Of a stretch of 64,000 nucleotides of DNA, positions 3,706 through 55,838 are shown one piece after another; position 1 is the stretch's first letter; every line of letters begins with the position of its first letter. The DNA is from Nitrosopumilus sp. GTDB taxonomy: Archaea; Thermoproteota; Nitrososphaeria; Nitrososphaerales; Nitrosopumilaceae. Where the stretch lies: positions 160,001 to 224,000 of the forward strand of contig CBDBGZ010000004.1 in the NCBI GenBank assembly GCA_965205425.1. The letters run 5' to 3'. Under the pieces are notes generated by a model, which was not told where the DNA came from, ran no database searches, and saw only the letters and a program-made list of their open reading frames with translations. A program made the translations under genes and the position numbers.

Positions 3706-5024
3706 CAGTAGATAGGAAAGTGCTCAATTCGGATCAAAAAATAACGATCATTTTCTCAAATTATTCAGATAGAAAAAGCTTGATGAAAGTATGTCACTCC
3801 ATCAAATATGCATTGTACTTCATTTGATACCATGACACACCAAGGCGTGATACTATCTAAAGCATTTGAGATTATCACTAAAATAATGTACAATATCTTA
3901 TTGTTTCCATGCTCTAGTAAAAATAACTCACGGTTCCACAATGCAGACGCACATAATTCTATCATGTCATTGTGTTTGGGAAATTCATATTCTGAATCTG
4001 GATTAAAGAGACTGGCAATGGAATCAGATAATGCTTCTCCAACTGGTTTCATGGTTGAGAAAAATCATATCAAAAATATCACAAAAAACAATGCAAATTC
4101 AATTACATCGTTCACTGGATAGTACCATATCAAAATTACAAGAATTGGGAGTATTGGAACAACCAGTTACTGTAGCAATTGACAAACATCTAATCCCAAG
4201 ATATGACAAATTGCCAAACCATTCTTTAATAAAATCAAAATCTAAAAACAGTACTACTCATTTTGAGAGTTACTGCACCATGCAGTGCGTTGAAAAAAGA
4301 ATCAGGGCTCAATTAGGTTGTTATCCTTTGTATGACAACATATCAAATGCCGATTTTGTGCGTAAATTACTCTCTGATGGCATCAATAATGGAATCAAGA
4401 TTAAACTATTGCTAGTGGATAGGGAGTTTTTCACAGCTGGAACAATTTCAGAAATAAAACAAAGGAATTTAAAATTTCTAATGCCTGCAAAAAAGAATTC
4501 TCGAATCAAAGATGCAATTGTACAATACGTTAATGGAGATAGAAAGTCAATCTCGCCATACACAATAAAATCATCATCAGGACATGTAGAATCATTTAAT
4601 CTAGTTATTCTGCCAAACAAAAATGCAAGAAAAAAATCAGATATTATTGATCAGTATGTTGTGTTTGCAACAAACGTTTCACCAAAAGAAATATCATATA
4701 ACATACAAAACATTCCAACTGATTACAAGAAACGTTGGGGAATTGAAACAGGCTATGCATGTGTGGGAAGGTTCAGACCAAAAACCACCAGTTCAAACCA
4801 ATCCATAAGATTGTTGTATTTTTACTATTCATTGATTTTGTACAATGCATGGATAATTGCTAATTTGATTATCTCAGAAGAAACTAATGTAAAAAATTAC
4901 AAACCAATAATATCAATTGAAATTCTCAAATATTTCTTTGTAAAGATAATTATTCATTACTTTAGAAATAACAAAAATAATTATTTTCTAGAATGTGTAA
5001 TTTGATGTACTTTCCCATCTACTG
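3706..5024 (+). mobile_element. ISH3-like (IS4 superfamily) IS, copy 1; transposase split 3808-4122 / 4031-5005
   Basis: IRs cagtagataggaaagt / actttcccatctactg; AIDKH, LLVDREFF, YKKRWGIETGY motifs. Confidence 0.9.
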
Positions 5025-5229
5025 AATTAAAGATCGATCTTAAGATCGAAACATAATTTCTTATTGTTGTAAATTCAGATGTAAAATAGTGATTAGATCA
5101 CCAAAATGCACCAGCAGGGTCTAAAGTATAATTTCTATGGAAAATTATTCGTGTCCAAACCATACAATTTAAAAAAATGCAATTTGAAGAAGATCCATAT
5201 TTCATGATGTGTGTGCTAGATCACTAGAA

Positions 5230-5763: not shown

Positions 5764-5812
5764 AATAGAAAAAAGAGATTAGCGCGTTGGCCTAACCTAC
5801 CTAAGAACTAAC
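5764..5812 (-). ncRNA. putative small antisense RNA complementary to the anticodon arm of the tRNA-like gene at 5846-5916
   Basis: 5795-5810 is identical to 5870-5885; on the minus strand it is followed by a GGTTAG/CTAATC hairpin and a CTCTTTTTT tract; transcription is inferred. Confidence 0.5.
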
Positions 5813-5845
5813 ATTATTAGTTTAGTGTTTTTTAATATACTTTGT

Positions 5846-5916
5846 GGGCCTGTAGCGTGACGGTCACGTACCTACCTAAGAACTAGGAGATTTGGGTTCA
5901 ACTCCCAACAGATCCA
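5846..5916 (+). tRNA. atypical tRNA-like gene, anticodon AAG, Ala-type acceptor stem
   Basis: GGGCCTG/CAGATCC+A (G3:U70, C4xA69 mismatch); D arm GCGT-GACGGTC-ACGT; anticodon arm CCTAC-CTAAGAA-CTAGG; T arm TTGGG-TTCAACT-CCCAA. Confidence 0.75.
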
Positions 5917-5974
5917 CGACTTTTAATTATGATTTATGTCAGGTAATTACTTTCCCAAGTACTGATGTTATTAG

Positions 5975-6022
5975 AATAGAAAAAGAGATTAGCGCGCTGG
6001 CCTAACCTACGTGAAACCTAAC
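5975..6022 (-). ncRNA. putative small antisense RNA complementary to the anticodon arm of the tRNA-like gene at 6055-6125
   Basis: 6005-6020 is identical to 6079-6094; same hairpin and T-tract as in unit 1. Confidence 0.5.
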
Positions 6023-6054
6023 GTTATTAGTTCAGATTTTATAATAAACTTTGT

Positions 6055-6125
6055 GGGCCTGTAGCGTGACGGTCACGCACCTACGTGAAACCTAGGAGAT
6101 TTGGGTTCAACTCCCAACAGGTCCA
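6055..6125 (+). tRNA. atypical tRNA-like gene, anticodon GAA, Ala-type acceptor stem
   Basis: GGGCCTG/CAGGTCC+A with G3:U70; D arm GCGT-GACGGTC-ACGC; CCTAC-GTGAAAC-CTAGG; canonical T arm. Confidence 0.8.
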
Positions 6126-6133
6126 CACTATAA

Positions 6134-6301
6134 TTAAGGTAAAAATGGTTTATGTTTTGCAGGAAATGCATCTCGTTTTTCTAGAAATACTCGTTCTTTT
6201 TGTGAATACCTACATCTCACATTATTGGTTGGAATTAGACGTGAACCCATACGAATCATGATGAATTGTTTTTGTGGGTTTGAAGCTGTGAGTTTTACCA
6301 T
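6134..6301 (-). CDS. 55-aa ORF (MVKLTASNPQKQFIMIRMGSRL...) behind an IS66-type left end
   Basis: Read manually (ATG 6301, TAA 6134); sits where the IS66 transposase start would be. Confidence 0.35.
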   Translation of the reverse strand: MVKLTASNPQKQFIMIRMGSRLIPTNNVRCRYSQKERVFLEKRDAFPAKHKPFLP

Positions 6302-6428
6302 TATTGTTGCAAAATTCTTCTCTGATCTAACTATTCGATATATCTAGGCACGACCTAAACACACACAGAGTCTCCATTATTGCTTGAAAATTCTTCTCTG
6401 ATCTAAATTATTCGGTTTAATCTAGGCG
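6299..6428 (-). mobile_element. two nested IS66-type left-end remnants
   Basis: IR gtgtgtgtttaggtc at 6352-6366; 6375-6428 nearly identical to the IS66 leader at ~48458-48512. Confidence 0.75.
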
Positions 6429-6612: not shown

Positions 6613-8109
6613 ATGATATCTGACAAGACAGTAATTTTTTGTGTCTTGATAATATCAATAGCAGTTGGTCTACAGCCTTTTGAGGATTTTTTTGACCAGT
6701 TAGCAGAAAATATTTTTTATAATTCTACAACTGATATTGGTTTGGAGTTTATTGCAAAACAAGACAATTTACGCAGTGAATTATTTGATAACATAAATAA
6801 TAATGATTATTTTTATGAAAAAATAAAACATACAGATGTATACAAAGCATTTATTGAGAAATACCCTCATTCAACTTTAACACTAAAGCATGCTGATAAT
6901 GATCTTTTAGAATTTGTTTTATACCATGTATACTCTAATGAACCACTTTCAGTTATTATGATAACCTTTGAGGTATCATTAGAGGAAGGTTTCATAAATA
7001 CTAGCTATGACTGCATCGGTGATAACAGTGCTAATATTTACTATAAAATGCCTACATTGTTTTGGATAAACTCTGATCGTTGTCTTCATACTATGAATAA
7101 TAAAATTACTTCATACCATAATGATATGCCAATATTTAATGATCATCATACAATGTTTTTCATCAATGATACTTTTGATGGTGATCTTGAGGGGTGGAAA
7201 TTTTGGTCAGGATTCCCAAAATATACCTTGGAAATAGATTCAAAAGCGGTACACCTTAGTGGAGATAATTTTGTAACCCATATAGGTTTGGAAAAAAATG
7301 TGAATGTATCTAACCTAACTAACAAAGAATTAATCTTATCATTTGATTATAGAGTAAAATCAGATACTTCAGATAGTACAGTCACCAATTCGAAACTCAT
7401 AATTTATGATTCAGATTACAATGAATTATTTAAAGAAAGTCTTGTATCAGGAGGAATAAAGGATACTGGTTGGCAAACATACCAAAAAAATATTTCAAAA
7501 TTCATCACAGGAGAAACACAAATCAAAATTGTTCTAAGTTTACAGGATAATTGGATATATAATCATAATCAACATGCTTGGTTCGATAATATTTACCTTA
7601 TACAAGATAATTCAAAAGAGATAATTTTTGATACGTTTGATGGTGATCTTGAGGGATGGTCTCTATGGACTGGTAAAATAGGTTATGAATTAATCCATGA
7701 TTCTCAAGCTGCAATGATTAGTGGAAATAGAGTATCATCTGTTAATGGCATACAAAAAACTGTAGATATCTCAGAATTAAAGAATAATTCTCTTACGTTA
7801 TCTTTTGATTATAGAGCAACTTCAAATTCTGCTAAAATTGATGTAACAAATGTTCTAGTTTCTATCTACGATGCAGAATCATACAAGCTGCTTTTTGAAC
7901 ATTATTTTATAAGTGGGGGAACAAAGGATACTGGTTGGCAAAAATATGAAAGAAATATTTATGAACATGTTAGGAACTCAGATAAAATTATTATCGCCTT
8001 ATCTAGTATAGATAATTCATCTGAAGATTCTAAACATAAGAACTGGTATGATAATATACAATTATCAGATAAAATTAGCATGGATCTAGATACTATCACA
8101 TATGAGTGA
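6613..8109 (+). CDS. secreted/membrane-anchored protein with two tandem carbohydrate-binding-like beta-sandwich repeats
   Basis: N-terminal hydrophobic segment; duplicated DTFDGDLEGW...LSFDYR...SGGxKDTGWQ...W(F/Y)DNI. Confidence 0.7.
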   Translation: MISDKTVIFCVLIISIAVGLQPFEDFFDQLAENIFYNSTTDIGLEFIAKQDNLRSELFDNINNNDYFYEKIKHTDVYKAFIEKYPHSTLTLKHADNDLLEFVLYHVYSNEPLSVIMITFEVSLEEGFINTSYDCIGDNSANIYYKMPTLFWINSDRCLHTMNNKITSYHNDMPIFNDHHTMFFINDTFDGDLEGWKFWSGFPKYTLEIDSKAVHLSGDNFVTHIGLEKNVNVSNLTNKELILSFDYRVKSDTSDSTVTNSKLIIYDSDYNELFKESLVSGGIKDTGWQTYQKNISKFITGETQIKIVLSLQDNWIYNHNQHAWFDNIYLIQDNSKEIIFDTFDGDLEGWSLWTGKIGYELIHDSQAAMISGNRVSSVNGIQKTVDISELKNNSLTLSFDYRATSNSAKIDVTNVLVSIYDAESYKLLFEHYFISGGTKDTGWQKYERNIYEHVRNSDKIIIALSSIDNSSEDSKHKNWYDNIQLSDKISMDLDTITYE

Positions 8110-9061: not shown

Positions 9062-9489
9062 TTATAAAAATCTAAACACAATTGGACAGTTAACTATTAT
9101 ACCTGTACTGCCAAACTCTCCACCATCAGGACCTGTAATCCATCCTTGCTCTACAAGGCCTAATATTTGGAATTCCTCAGTAACCCTAGAGTCATAGTGT
9201 TTTTCTAGTGCCTCATCCGTCCAAAATCCTAGATTAACATCCCAAAGCGGTGAGTAATCAGTAGCTATAGTTGGTATTCCACCTAACACGTTTAGTGGAG
9301 ATCTATGATCAACAATTGCTGAATTTAATCCCTGTCTTTGTGGATTTTTATCACCTGTTGGACCATTAGCCATTACAAAGATTCTCTCAACTGCCGAGAA
9401 TGCGGAATCATCACCACCTATTGGGATTTTTCCTAGAGACGGTGTTAGTGTTGCACCTTCAAGTGTTGCATCTAATGGATGATTGCTCT
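9062..9489 (-). pseudogene. displaced C-terminal part of the gene starting at 2947
   Basis: Open from the IS end at 9489: ESNHPLDATLEGATLTPSLGKIPIGGDDSAFSAVERIFVMANGP...NCPIVFRFL. Confidence 0.85.
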
Positions 9490-10809
9490 CAGTAGATGGG
9501 AAAGTAACTCAAGTTACACATTCTAGAAAATAATTATTTTTGTTATTTCTAAAGTAATGAATAATTATCTTTACAAAGAAATATTTGAGAATTTCAATTG
9601 ATATTATTGGTTTGTGATTTTGTACATTAGTTTCTTCTGAGATAATCAAATTAGCAATTATCCATGCATTGTACAAAATCAAGGAATAGTAAAAATACAA
9701 CAATCTTATGGATTGGTTTGAACTGGTGGTTTTTGGTCTGAACCTTCCCACACATGCATAACCTGTTTCAATCCCCCAACGTTTCTTGTAATCAGTTGGA
9801 ATGTCCTGTATATTTTCAGATATTTCTTTTGGTGAAACGTTTGTTGCAAACACAGCATACTGATCAATAATATCTGATTTTTTTCTTGCATTTTTGTTTG
9901 GTAGAATAACTAGATTAAATGATTCTACATGTCCTGATGATGATTTTATTGTGTATGGCGAGATTGACTTTCTATCTCCATTAACGTATTGTAAAATGGC
10001 ATCTTTGATTCGAGAATTCTTTTTTGCAGGCATTAGAAATTTTAAATTCCTTTGTTTTATTTCTGAAATTGTTCCAGCTGTGAAAAACTCCCTATCCACT
10101 AGCAATAGTTTAATCTTGATTCCATTATTGATGCCATCAGAGAGTAATTTACGCACAAAATCGGCATTTGATATGTTGTCATACAAAGGATAACAACCTA
10201 ATTGAGCCCTGATTCTTTTTTCAACGCACTGCATGGTGCAGTAACTCTCAAAATGAGTAGTACTGTTTTTAGATTTTGATTTTATTAAAGAATGATTTGG
10301 CAATTTGTCATATCTTGGGATTAGATGTTTGTCAATTGCTACAGTAACTGGTTGTTCCAATACTCCCAATTCTTGTAATTTTGATATGGTACTATCCAGT
10401 GAACGATGTAATTGAATTTGCATTGTTTTTTGTGATATTTTTGATATGATTTTTCTCAACCATGAAACCAGTTGGAGAAGCATTATCTGATTCCATTGCC
10501 AGTCTCTTTAATCCAGATTCAGAATATGAATTTCCCAAACACAATGACATGATAGAATTATGTGCGTCTGCATTGTGGAACCGTGAGTTATTTTTACTAG
10601 AGCATGGAAACAATAAGATATTGTACATTATTTTAGTGATAATCTCAAATGCTTTAGATAGTATCACGCCTTGGTGTGTCATGGTATCAAATGAAGTACA
10701 ATGCATATTTGATGGAGTGACATACTTTCATCAAGCTTTTTCTATCTGAATAGATTGATTGAATAATTGATAGTTTTTGATCTAAATTGAGTTACTTTCC
10801 CATCTACTG
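9490..10809 (-). mobile_element. ISH3-like IS, copy 2 (inverted)
   Basis: IRs cagtagatgggaaagtaactc at both ends; transposase near-identical to copy 1, same split. Confidence 0.9.
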
Positions 10810-11356: not shown

Positions 11357-12497
11357 GAGACATGGGCATAACTAATTCTAATTTTTGAGTCAATTCTCAA
11401 ATTATTCAAATAGAAAAAGCTAAGGATCTTATCATGTTTTGTTCATTGTAATGTCAAAACAAATGAAAATCCCTAACAAGATTCTATCGGAATCATTTCT
11501 TATTGGTATTTTGTATTTGGTGGGAATGTTGTCTTTGTATGAAGAGATACTGAAACCTGGTAGACCGTACGTATACTCTACAATTCTAATGGTACAGCTG
11601 TCCATCATAAAATCTTGGATGAGAATTCCTAGTAACAATACATTACATTATTTCCTTTCAATCAAACCTTCCAATGACAAACTGCTCAAGGTTTGCAAAT
11701 TAACTCAAATTCCAGACAGAAGAACTATTGACAGACGATTTCAATTTCTACCAATTAGTGACATGATTAGTACCATGGGCAACAAATTCATCTCAGAGGG
11801 ATTGGTGGAAAATGTTTCAGCATCAGGGGATAGTTCAATGCTAAAAGCAGATGGTCCAGTATGGCACAAATCAGACATAAGGAACAATCGTCTACCAATC
11901 CCAGGAATTGATACTGATGCAAAATGGGGTTTTTCAAAATCAAAGGGTTGGATATTTGGATACAAACTGCACATGAGTTGCAGTACTGGAAAACTGATAG
12001 TTCCATTGTCTGCTGATGTCTCAACTGCAAATGTTTCTGATGGTAAAATGTATGAAACGTTAGTCAAACCACTTGCAGGACTGGTTGAAAATATTTTATG
12101 TGATGTGCCATATGATGATAAATCATTATATCAGTTTAGTGATGAGAGACATTTGAGATTGATTTGTTCTATCAAAATATATCCATCAACACCGCCAGAG
12201 CGAATCAAACTTGCAGATTTTTATAATTCTGTACAAGGTCAAGAGTTGTACTCACAAAGAAAAGTCTCAATTGAACCTTTATTTGAAATATTCAAAGATA
12301 CGTTCAACATTAGAACTGTACATGTGAAAGGATTTGACAACGTGAAATCATTTGTATTGGTTTGTGTGTTGGTGTATCAACTTGTAGTATATTACAACTG
12401 TATAATTGGAGCAGAAAATCCAAGAACTGTAAAGAGAATGCTTTGCTGTTAGGAAATGACTGAGAGTTATTTTTGTAAATAATTATGCCCAAGTCTC
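11357..12497 (+). mobile_element. DDE IS (IS982/ISNCY-like), transposase 11439-12452
   Basis: IR gagacatgggcataa / ttatgcccaagtctc; 8-bp TSD aaatatgt; DSS, GYKLH, RKVSIEPLF motifs. Confidence 0.9.
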
Positions 12498-13860
12498 AAA
12501 TATGTTTAGTCGCTTGGAAGCTTTAGCATATTCCGTTCTTATGCTGTCTGGGAATAATTTTGCTTGTTTTTTGTAAGAGTTTTTTGGTTTGTGTCCCACC
12601 ACTTCTTCTACTACATCTTCACGGCAATTACAATCAGTTAAAACAGATACCAATACATCACGAATCTCATGTGAATCCATATTGTAGATATTTTTTTCGT
12701 TGGCAGTCTTACCGATTATTTTTAATATTCCTGCTCTTGTGGCAATTCTATGAAAAGCATGACTTATCCACCAATCAGTAATTGGTTTTCCAAATTTGTT
12801 TAAAAATATTGGTTCTCCAATTTGTATATCTTGTTTTGTCTGCTTTTTTCTGAAATCAAGATACCTCTGTAATTCATAAACTGCATCTCTATCAAGACAT
12901 CCAATATGGTTGTAATCTACTTTGATTCTTACAAGGGTGATTGGTACAGGGCATTTATTGAGATCCCATGAATTGTAATTTTCAGAACCAAAATATTTGA
13001 CTAGTTGTTCCAATGCTTCAAAATTGAATCTATCGGCCAATGTTGCTCGGTCCAATCCCCTATGAAATTTACATAAAAATAACGCTTTTTCCATTATTGA
13101 GGGTTTACCGACAGTCAAAAATTTCATCAAATCAGATAATGTCATACTTTGTTCTTCTATGGTATTGTTGTTTGTGATTGTCGGATCATATTGAAAATTA
13201 ATCTCTTGTTCATTTTTTTCAAAATATGATACTATTGCAGATTTGATCAACGTTAATGAACTTGCTTTAAAATTTGAATGTTTTTCATCAAGAAGATATT
13301 GTTTTATGATTCGTATGATTGTCTTTTTTTCTATGAATGGTCCTTCTAAAATGTTTAAAATTTCCTCCACATTTTGAAATTGTCTATATTCAGTTTTTTG
13401 CGTGAATGCACTTTCATCAATACGATGCAGAGTTTGAATTTTGAATCTCCTTTCATTATTTTCAATGTCTGGTGATGTAAGCCATTTGTTAAAATTCCAT
13501 AATTGACGTAAATATGCTTTTTTGGTACTATTTTGTGCTGTTTTGGCATTTTTTTGTCTATTTCCCCTTAATTGAGATTGCCAGTATTGAATTGATTTTA
13601 TCTGTATAAACCATGTAGGAATATGTGTATCATCAATTCTTTCAACCATATTGTTGTCTTTGGCAAATTTCATCATTTTTTGACTTTTCAGCAATGCACT
13701 TTCTTTTTTATTATTACATATTTTTAAAAGGATTTTTTTATTTTTCTCAAATAATGAATTTGCTGTAACTGTTTCGCCAATTTTCGGGAAACATATTTTT
13801 TCAAATGTCATTGGAAATTCTTGATTATCTGTAATAACTGTATAGAGGTATGACTGTTTC

Positions 13861-14889
13861 TGTTGTATCCCAAAATCAGTTCGTCCCTTATTTGACATCG
13901 TATTCTTCTCCTGTCTGCTCATCAATAACTCTTGTTCCTTTCTCTGGCATCTTTCTTGCATATGCCTTTGCAGGGGTCTCAAGATTATCCCAGTCAAGTG
14001 ACATGTGTGGCTTTATGTGATTGTACCAGTGGACCAGCTCATCAATGGTGCCAAACCATTTCTGCTTTCTCTGAATCTCGCCGTGAAATCTTTCGAGCTT
14101 GCCATTGGTTTGAGGATGGTTCACTCTTGCCATGATATGCTTTATCTCTAATTTTACCAGTTCTTGCTCAAACTGGGATGCTCCTTTTCTCTTGTATTCT
14201 GATTGGTTTGCATAAAACTGGGAGCCATGATCAGTTAGAATTGATGCAGGCCTACCGTGCTTTGCAATTGCCTCATGTAATACTACAAGTGCGTTATCTG
14301 TTGTTGCCTCTGCAAACACTCCATGAGAAACGATAAACCTTGATGCGTCATCCTGGTAGCATAAGAACCATCTGCCATCATCTAGCTTCTTCCAGTCAGT
14401 ATGCCACATGGAGTTTGAATATGTCCTCTCGTATCTAACCCACTTTCGTCTTCTCCTCTTCTTTGGCTGAGCTTCTGCCAACCCTTCATCTCTCATAATT
14501 TTGTGTATGGTATTGTGAGGTATGTGTGTTCCAGTAGTATCAATTATTTTCTCCAAGAATACTGCAGAACACCTGAACTTTTCAAATGCTGACTGGACAG
14601 TCTGTACCATCTGCTCTGTGATTATTCCCTTTGGCCTTCCAGGCTTGCCTAGAATCGGAACTGCACCAGTACGGCTATACCGTGAGTAGAGTTTCTGCAC
14701 CCACCGAACAGATATCTTCATGGATGAGGCTACGTCTGCGTTCTTGGCACCATCCTCTTTTGACTTGATTATCCAGGATATCTGGATTGGATCTAATTTT
14801 TGCATAATCTTGTGATTCTTTCCTCTTTTCCAAACGTATCTTGACTTTAGTCTGGAAATAATGGGGTGAACTAATTTGAGGATAATAGA
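13861..14889 (-). mobile_element. IS481-like IS type A, transposase 13888-14805
   Basis: WHTDWK, DDASR, TDHGSQF, QTNGKLER; 15-bp direct repeat aggtatgactgtttc on both flanks. Confidence 0.9.
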
Positions 14890-55711: not shown

Positions 55712-55838
55712 CCCGTGGTAGCTCAGCCTGGTAGAGCTTCCGGCTGTAGTTGTTGGCTTTAGATGGCTGACCGAAAAACAGCATATCAGGCATACAGAAA
55801 CCGGGTTGTCGGTGGTTCAATTCCGCCCCGCGGGACCA
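55712..55838 (+). tRNA. tRNA-Tyr(GTA) with a 50-nt intron at 37/38 (55750-55799), CCA encoded
   Basis: CCCGTGG/CCGCGGG acceptor (C1-G72, A73), anticodon GTA 55746-55748, BHB helix CTGT/ACAG. Confidence 0.93.

Follow-up and report, generated by a model that had tools for sequence, protein, structure and literature searches.

Alanine-type tRNA-like genes with foreign anticodons and predicted anti-anticodon small RNAs in Nitrosopumilus: a possible RNA toxin-antitoxin module

Results

Two tRNA-like genes and their antisense partners

We analysed a stretch of 64,000 nucleotides (nt) from the genome of Nitrosopumilus sp. (GenBank assembly GCA_965205425.1, contig CBDBGZ010000004.1, referred to here as C4, positions 160001-224000), below called the window. 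The genome comprises 2.2 Mb with 33% G+C. The window contains two tandem transfer RNA (tRNA)-like genes that combine an alanine-type body with anticodons of other amino acids, and beside each of them lies a predicted small RNA (sRNA) gene complementary to the anticodon arm of its neighbour. The same gene architecture, with specific complementarity that co-varies between the two partners, recurs in a family of such units. The likeliest reading, which we hold tentatively, is that each unit would be an RNA-RNA toxin-antitoxin or addiction module, in which a wrongly decoding tRNA has its anticodon arm masked by a dedicated antisense sRNA.

The first gene, tRNA-like 1, occupies positions 5846-5917 of the forward strand of the window; tRNA-like 2 occupies positions 6055-6126 of the same strand. 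Both are 72 nt long. ARAGORN calls the former tRNA-Leu(aag), with the anticodon AAG at 5878-5880 in the loop CUAAGAA, and the latter tRNA-Phe(gaa), with GAA at 6087-6089 in the loop GUGAAAC. Their scores with the Rfam tRNA model (RF00005) are 46.8 and 49.2 bits, respectively, the gathering score being 29. Both genes carry the complete alanine identity set G1-C72, G2-C71, G3:U70 and A73. They also share a C31xC39 mismatch, G14, a 4-nt variable region, the T-loop TTCAACT, and a D stem that extends to 6 base pairs (bp) in the minimum free energy (MFE) folds. A sequence-only reading of this locus had listed the same identity set, anticodon sites and structural peculiarities, including the extended D arm and a C4xA69 mismatch confined to the first gene, and our inspection of the sequence and of the MFE folds confirmed them. 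The acceptor stem of tRNA-like 2 has all seven pairs intact, and its MFE cloverleaf has an energy of -29.3 kcal/mol (z = -2.99).

Neither gene is a regular member of any isotype. The anticodons AAG and GAA are not of the alanine form NGC. With its 4-nt variable region, tRNA-like 1 lacks the long arm that the earlier reading had rightly named as a feature of true tRNA-Leu and that is carried by the real tRNA-Leu genes of this genome (86-88 nt). The second gene has GAA and A73, as expected of tRNA-Phe, but A37, unlike the canonical tRNA-Phe (contig C2, 10466-10540), whose position 37 is G and whose acceptor stem is unrelated. From its sequence, charging of tRNA-like 2 by phenylalanyl-tRNA synthetase may be conceivable.

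Approximately 35-51 nt upstream of each tRNA-like gene of the window, the forward strand repeats the anticodon arm of that very gene. The repeats are ACCTACCTAAGAACTAA at 5795-5811, upstream of tRNA-like 1, and ACCTACGTGAAACCTAA at 6005-6021, upstream of tRNA-like 2. On the reverse strand these repeats fall into a candidate sRNA gene with a regular layout: an AT-rich octamer, a spacer of about 21 nt, a 17-nt antisense segment complementary to approximately positions 26-42 of the tRNA partner, a hairpin, and a run of five or six U. Predicted anti-anticodon sRNA 1 covers 5769-5811 of the reverse strand, with the antisense running from 5811 to 5795, the hairpin at about 5798-5776 and a U6 run at 5774-5769. 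Predicted sRNA 2 covers 5980-6021 of the same strand, with the antisense from 6021 to 6005, a hairpin and a U5 run at 5984-5980. The predicted fold consists of a single-stranded 5' part and the hairpin. Each sRNA may form a duplex of 17 bp with its neighbour (16 Watson-Crick pairs and one G:U), with calculated energies of -27.2 kcal/mol for unit 1, where the non-cognate median is -12.1, and -28.2 kcal/mol for unit 2. An Rfam scan of the predicted sRNA region yielded no family at E <= 10. The picture of two tRNA genes given by the sequence-only reading is thus correct for the tRNA part, but the cognate antisense module beside each gene had been missed.

The anticodon loops of the two window genes differ at four positions, and all four differences are matched by the same changes in the upstream elements. 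In a third genomic copy (contig C9, complement 454069-454140) the loop differs at two more positions, and both changes are mirrored in its element.

Candidate TATA boxes of the sRNA genes were observed on the reverse strand at 5832-5839 for sRNA 1 (TATATTAA, 28 nt before the antisense, counted from first base to first base) and at 6041-6048 for sRNA 2 (TTTATTAT), with the same geometry in both units of the window and in other units. This spacing fits an archaeal TATA box with the transcription start at the antisense. On the forward strand, a candidate TATA box of tRNA-like 1 was predicted at 5814-5821 (TTATTAGT, -32 to -25 from G1), and an ACTAATAA/TTATTAGT element occupies the equivalent position in many units. 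In units of the window type the candidate boxes are interleaved, each lying between the other box and the start site of that box. Thus initiation of the tRNA-like and initiation of the sRNA might be mutually exclusive.

The family in the host genome

The genome contains seven tRNA-likes of this kind, with anticodons AAG (two), GAA (two) and GUC (three). G3:U70 is present in 10 of the 59 predicted tRNAs, namely three tRNA-Ala and the seven tRNA-likes. Its restriction to these two groups argues that the features are not due to chance. When all 61 ARAGORN calls were screened for a 10-mer copy of the anticodon arm within 250 nt, such a copy was found beside six of them, and a seventh has a copy with a G:U pair. 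These seven calls are exactly the tRNA-likes with G3:U70, A73 and a non-alanine anticodon. We also ranked 52 tRNAs by the energy of the best duplex with their 400-nt flanks on both strands, long or intron-bearing calls being excluded. The tRNA-likes are seven of the top eight in this ranking, which contains no canonical tRNA with an adjacent antisense partner. Two other comparisons were uninformative: a genome-wide 12-mer search for additional antisense targets yielded chance-level matches for all tRNAs, and the global identity of the tRNA-like body to the canonical tRNAs did not discriminate.

Two module types were observed. In the upstream type, which includes the units of the window, the sRNA is divergent from the tRNA-like. 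Four of the seven units instead have the module on the downstream side, in the orientation of the tRNA; it consists of the AT box TTTAATTA, about 22 nt of spacer, the antisense, a hairpin terminating in CTAGCC, and a T-run. The internal order of the module is thus constant in two orientations, as expected of a separate transcript. This argues against a leader or trailer of the tRNA transcript and against an integration (att) footprint; a T-box-like leader was likewise rejected.

The genome also contains three GAA tRNAs with a long variable arm, of serine type, whose acceptor is CGUCAGG (contig C8, complement 120792-120883; contig C9, complement 254931-255020; contig C9, 901280-901368). One of them has an alanine-type GUC unit at a distance of 430 nt. 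No antisense partner was seen for these genes in the flank ranking, and thus they form a separate family.

Relatives in other genomes

A BLAST search with the whole unit in 150 genomes of the family produced one relative, from the same genus and 71% identical. It has a matching antisense, and its tRNA-like shows compensatory changes in the acceptor stem (pair 5:68) and in the D stem. Since whole-unit comparison gave a single relative, motif and covariance-model searches were needed. We applied a covariance model, built from the tRNA bodies alone, to 150 genomes of the genus. In most of the listed genomes, the model gives true tRNA-Ala a score of 61.2 bits. At least 16 of the 150 genomes, mostly the larger ones, contain 72-75-nt matches above this score, with up to seven or eight copies per genome. 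These and other genome counts refer to samples of the searched groups, and related genomes are non-independent observations.

Among 25 new loci selected by the tRNA body, a cognate antisense was found within 100 nt in 22, at about 345 nt in two, and in one there was none. Each of the 22 adjacent pairs has one of the two canonical module arrangements. Their complementarity scores range from 25 to 40, compared with 15-18 for three canonical tRNAs, 16-19 for six canonical tRNA-Ala of other genera, and at most 24 for 27 tRNA-Ala of viral contigs. None of these control tRNAs has an antisense partner. The pattern search in viral contigs retrieved only these 27 ordinary tRNA-Ala and no member of the alanine-type tRNA-like family.

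Real units were also observed in three further genera of the family, making four genera in all, whereas the loci examined in other families of the class contain only canonical tRNA-Ala. The 3' motif of the sRNA, GCTAATCTCYTTTT, has 51 matches in 41 of 401 genomes, many of them chance matches inside genes, and about 20 matches in the control. It was not used as a census, as real modules were present in only 12 of 30 fetched loci.

Some loci contain parts of units. Truncated tRNA-likes beside sRNA modules were observed at three loci (L066, L067, L068), and orphan sRNAs of the downstream type at L076/L079 and L080. In L079 (genome G177, approximately 1296-1439 when read in the direction of the tRNA), an alanine-type GAA tRNA-like is broken by about 36 nt and a duplication of positions 8-42. 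Behind it lies an undamaged orphan sRNA against a GUC-type arm, and that arm is absent among the hits in this genome. The window itself contains at 5918-5944 (forward strand) a remnant of a downstream-type sRNA promoter; in L076 and L079 the corresponding sequence continues into a complete hairpin/T-run sRNA against a GUC-type arm.

Covariation and pairing

In an alignment of 15 cloverleaves, 95.9% of the cells are paired and 16 of the 21 pairs have changed on both sides, a result matched by none of 500 shuffles. The pairs 1:72, 2:71 and 3:70 are invariant in all 15 members, whereas pair 5:68 takes five pair types and pair 6:67 takes four. No member has G-C or A-U in place of the wobble pair G3:U70, which suggests selection on the alanine identity element itself. 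Across 36 pooled units, 35 have G3:U70 and 34 have A73, and both A37 and a pyrimidine at position 33 occur in all 36.

For 32 of these 36 tRNA-likes, no flank in the set pairs better than the cognate one; in the exceptions the flanks of near-identical units of other genomes do. The duplexes are 9-20 bp long and together contain 521 Watson-Crick pairs, 46 G:U pairs and two mismatches, under local-alignment scoring that trims terminal mismatches and with many G:U pairs shared by descent. Departures from Watson-Crick pairing are thus nearly all G:U and not A:C, as predicted by selection on an RNA-RNA duplex and unlike the drift of a DNA copy. Duplex energies calculated for 16 units are -19.7 to -28.2 kcal/mol for cognate pairs, with non-cognate medians of -8.5 to -15.6.

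The module geometry is conserved as well. The duplex starts at flank position 31-37 in 30 of the 36 units, with the AT-rich octamer at about 6-13 and, in most units, a T-run near position 70-79. The 3' hairpin of the sRNA is retained with quite different stems, for example UUAGUUC/GAACUAG, GGCUA/UAGCC, GUAACUC/GAGUUAC and UAGCAUAG/UUAUGCUA.

Anticodons

The 36 pooled anticodons are GAA (16), AAG (7), GUC (7), GAG (3), CAG (2) and GAU (1), corresponding to phenylalanine, leucine, aspartate and isoleucine. Position 33 is U in 26 units and C in 10. Units with GAA occur in both module types and in body subfamilies with completely diverged anticodon stems. An antisense sRNA could track any change in its target, and yet the anticodon is conserved. 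This suggests a constraint from outside the pair, with codon reading the obvious candidate. To judge from this pattern, the anticodon is probably not merely an address. The most economical reading of the sequences is that the tRNA-likes would be alanine-accepting, wrongly decoding tRNAs. The alanine identity proposed by the sequence-only reading stands in this respect, as the identity set and the anticodon both appear to be selected, but that proposal had not taken the cognate antisense into account.

Genomic setting of the window units

The two tRNA-likes belong to tandem copies of a unit of about 210 bp. They lie in a 4.5-kb segment bounded by two inverted copies of a 1303-nt insertion sequence (IS), at 3723-5025 and 9489-10791, which are 98% complementary and each encode a 324-aa DDE_Tnp_1 transposase. 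The arrangement is like a composite transposon. Apart from the two units, the segment contains transposase fragments and an open reading frame (ORF) of 498 aa at 6613-8109 on the forward strand. This ORF matches no Pfam or NCBIfam family, has an internal 67-nt repeat (7429-7495 and 7894-7960, 76% identical), and lacks homologues beside the other units of the genome. The promoter remnant at 5918-5944 is interrupted by a 30-mer at 5936-5965 that resembles the IS end at 5008-5025. The same 30-mer recurs at five other sites of the genome (contigs C5, C8 and C9) with 94-97% identity, and may be a solo IS end or the end of a miniature inverted-repeat transposable element.

The opening 16 kb of the window are dense with mobile-element genes, among them IS1595- and DDE-type transposase genes at 2066-2897 and 11439-12452. 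On the reverse strand, two overlapping ORFs occupy 12483-14805: one of 504 aa, which matches tyrosine recombinases weakly, extends over the start of the other, which has 305 aa and encodes an rve-type integrase or transposase. A 33-nt direct repeat, CCATTATTG..AAAATTCTTCTCTGATCTAA, occupies 6298-6330 and 6374-6406. Contig C2 has a similar sequence about 250 nt downstream of its GUC-type unit, and the repeat is thus another short recurring element of the region. Other units are likewise situated among transposase genes, with an IS630-like DDE_3 gene no more than 1.5-2 kb away in 8 of 27 loci.

Elsewhere in the window, a tRNA-Tyr(GTA) gene interrupted by an intron of 50 nt was found at 55712-55838 (forward strand). 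It is detected by Rfam and by ARAGORN with introns allowed, but not by ARAGORN with default settings, and a near-identical second copy lies on contig C6. Two intron-allowing ARAGORN calls on contig C9 (489600-491295 and 747883-749142), in which the introns would span 1.2-1.6 kb, are probably false positives. A search of public sequencing runs for the locus listed four data sets of unrecorded kind from two studies, and no RNA run.

Discussion

Proposed mechanism

AlaRS, the alanyl-tRNA synthetase, does not read the anticodon. Each unit would consist of two RNA genes, an alanine-type tRNA as the effector and an sRNA of about 45 nt, made from its own promoter, as the mask. The tRNA-like would be charged by AlaRS, of which the genome has a single gene, and would then insert alanine at leucine, phenylalanine, aspartate or isoleucine codons. 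The single-stranded 5' end of the sRNA would nucleate on the 7-nt anticodon loop and then invade the weak anticodon stem, which has four base pairs and the 31x39 mismatch. The resulting helix of 13-20 bp would hide the anticodon from the ribosome and leave the acceptor and T-arm free. Transcription of the sRNA, formation of the duplex in vivo and alanylation of the tRNA-like are all inferred from sequence.

A harmful effect of the unmasked tRNA and a toxin-antitoxin role are speculative. A stable mistranslating tRNA could be restrained by a labile sRNA, the pair being carried in mobile, IS-rich DNA and possibly acting in abortive infection. Because a tRNA outlives a short sRNA, the alanine-inserting tRNA might be unmasked when the locus is lost or transcription is shut off. 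Several observations fit such a role: the multiple orthogonal specificities in one genome, the patchy distribution, and the setting in mobile DNA. There is also an apparent surplus of orphan sRNAs over orphan tRNAs, in small numbers and in sets that were ascertained differently.

On the other hand, a number of observations weigh against this interpretation. C33 (10 of 36 units), G32 (7 of 36), the frequent 31x39 mismatches and A34 (7 of 36) are all poor for decoding, and the tRNA-likes have A37 where the tRNA-Phe and tRNA-Leu of the same genome have G37. The restricted set of anticodons could partly reflect common descent. In the window, the acceptor stem of tRNA-like 1 has the C4xA69 mismatch. 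For the tRNA-likes of L091 and L164, the whole assembly contains no cognate sRNA, and in L091 the upstream region including the presumed promoter has been replaced. No conserved protein partner was found near the units in 27 loci, and no protein links them to addiction or defence, the sole recurrent neighbours being the transposases DDE_Tnp_1 and DDE_3. The IS-rich surroundings are equally compatible with neutral, decaying DNA. Finally, the promoter boxes and the ends of the sRNAs are predictions from the nucleotide sequence.

Alternative explanations

One possibility is that the same two RNAs serve the host, regulated unmasking placing alanine at phenylalanine, leucine, aspartate or isoleucine codons. 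All the structural evidence, that is pairing, identity and conservation of the anticodon, is compatible with this, and the long-variable-arm GAA tRNAs provide a second identity-mismatched family in the same genome. However, the units occur in a scattered subset of the genus (at least 16 of 150 genomes) and are multi-copy, divergent in specificity and situated in IS-rich regions. They thus look like accessory or selfish DNA and not like a conserved physiological circuit, and we consider service to the host unlikely.

The relaxed loop positions (C33, G32 and the 31x39 mismatches) could also mean that the tRNA-like does not decode at all. The anticodon arm would then be a docking address, and the alanylated tRNA-like together with the sRNA would form an active particle, either a rescue RNA resembling two-piece transfer-messenger RNA (tmRNA) or a donor of alanine outside the ribosome. 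Indeed, the duplex would spare the alanine-accepting acceptor and T-arm, and tmRNA is likewise an alanine-accepting tRNA-like RNA. This is rather improbable. A mere address would not need the anticodon and A37 to be conserved while the stem and the sRNA co-vary freely, and on inspection of the sRNA of about 45 nt the two module types showed no common reading frame. Moreover, ARAGORN calls no tmRNA, the score of the Rfam model tmRNA_permuted is 16.5 bits against a gathering score of 47, and no conserved protein partner accompanies the units.

Similarly improbable is that the antisense copy acts as DNA, for instance as a binding site, a promoter element or a footprint of duplication, and that no sRNA is made. 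The copy of the upstream-type units does overlap the region where the promoter of the tRNA itself must lie. However, one internal order of AT-box, about 21 nt, antisense, hairpin and T-run is kept in both orientations, and the hairpin is preserved by compensatory changes. Drift of a DNA copy should also have produced A:C oppositions, whereas we observed 46 G:U pairs and two mismatches.

The IS-rich neighbourhood, with the window segment enclosed by inverted 1303-nt IS copies, and the broken copies L066, L067, L068 and L079 would agree with functionless, decaying tRNA pseudogenes or repeats carried by insertion sequences, as would C4xA69 in copy 1. That mismatch is also the sole basis of the earlier suggestion that copy 1 may be decaying. 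Decay is highly unlikely to explain the strong covariation of the cloverleaf (none of 500 shuffles), the invariant G3:U70, and the retention of sRNA pairing between units only 71% identical and across four genera.

Finally, the role of decoys for anticodon nucleases, an alternative of the sequence-only reading, has nothing in its favour beyond the odd anticodon loops and is scarcely credible, since a decoy should mimic its model, whereas the arms are unlike those of the host tRNA-Phe, tRNA-Leu and tRNA-Asp and match their own antisense instead, and no nuclease gene is linked to the units.

Several known types of RNA were considered for the units and rejected. Identification as tmRNA fails on the ARAGORN and tmRNA_permuted results given above and on the missing shared tag frame. 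The predicted sRNAs have neither the C (RUGAUGA) nor the D (CUGA) box of box C/D guides and match no Rfam family. Split or permuted tRNAs were considered and rejected as well.

Implications

Returning to the toxin-antitoxin interpretation, its fullest form is an all-RNA system in which a stable alanyl-tRNA misreading phenylalanine, leucine, aspartate or isoleucine codons would be held by a short-lived antisense antitoxin, with orthogonal pairs spreading on the mobile DNA of marine ammonia-oxidising archaea by addiction or abortive infection. We regard this as possible, but doubtful in its entirety. If it is true, a mismatch of tRNA identity would be a maintained, gene-encoded activity with its own control RNA, beyond an accident or a disease allele, and tRNA would join the short list of RNA toxins. 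The sRNA would act on the anticodon arm of a tRNA, for which we know of no earlier dedicated antisense regulator. The units would then be natural orthogonal pairs of tRNA and anti-tRNA, usable as switches for controlled amino acid substitution. As the hosts are among the most abundant archaea of the ocean, such modules may bear on the persistence of mobile elements or on resistance to viruses. Even without a toxin-antitoxin role, a functional explanation is needed for two separate RNA genes that co-vary strictly at more than 30 loci.

Comparison with known systems

A module of two RNAs, an alanine-type tRNA and an anti-anticodon sRNA, has apparently not been described before. A full-text literature search, with most papers of subscription journals outside its reach, yielded no tRNA with a dedicated anti-anticodon sRNA gene.

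Body and anticodon disagree in the nev-tRNAs of nematodes and in tRNA-ProA of Streptomyces. Like these and like mistranslating G3:U70 tRNAs, the tRNA-likes join a body of alanine or another isotype to the anticodon of a different amino acid. They differ from mistranslating tRNAs in forming a conserved, multi-copy archaeal family in which each member has its own antisense sRNA gene. We know of no dedicated antisense partner of any known mistranslating or mismatched tRNA. For such tRNAs, G3:U70 is reported to be sufficient for recognition by AlaRS, and human tRNA variants with G3:U70 are reported to be charged by AlaRS and to mistranslate (PMC11415595).

Among toxin-antitoxin systems, CreTA of Haloarcula is an archaeal RNA-RNA pair of type VIII (PMC11610964). 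The units share with CreTA and with type I systems the adjacent small RNA genes, an antisense that would neutralise a potentially harmful RNA, and translation as the presumed target; with CreTA they also share the archaeal host. However, CreT sequesters a tRNA, and CreA acts via Cascade on the creT promoter (PMC11610964). Type I antitoxins pair with the toxin mRNA, whereas here the presumed toxin is a tRNA and the presumed antitoxin would pair with its anticodon arm. Of the features that define an RNA toxin-antitoxin system, gene adjacency and specific complementarity were observed in the units, whereas harm by the tRNA-like and neutralisation by the sRNA are conjectural.

The mode of recognition is reminiscent of RNA I and RNA II of ColE1, which control plasmid copy number. 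Their recognition starts between loops, RNA I is cloverleaf-like, and loop changes create new specificities. Recognition from complementary loops, a cloverleaf shape and new specificities arising by loop changes would be common to both systems. However, the ColE1 RNAs are read from the same DNA, and their complementarity is automatic; here separate segments must co-evolve, and there is no replicon context.

The tRNA-like acceptor of tmRNA is also an alanine acceptor with G3:U70, and two-piece forms of tmRNA exist. Both systems thus have an alanine-type acceptor with G3:U70, and two RNA pieces that are, or here would be, joined by pairing. Unlike tmRNA, the tRNA-likes have the whole anticodon arm, in which the anticodon is conserved, and the units contain neither a tag reading frame nor pseudoknots.

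Finally, the box C/D guide sRNAs of archaea pair with tRNA anticodon arms, and the T-box leaders of bacteria pair with the anticodon. In these systems, as proposed here, a separate RNA pairs with the anticodon region of a tRNA. However, the predicted sRNAs have no C/D boxes, and the duplex of 13-20 bp is far longer than the specifier pairing of a T-box. Moreover, unlike in both these systems, the partner here is not a housekeeping tRNA but a private, non-canonical one.

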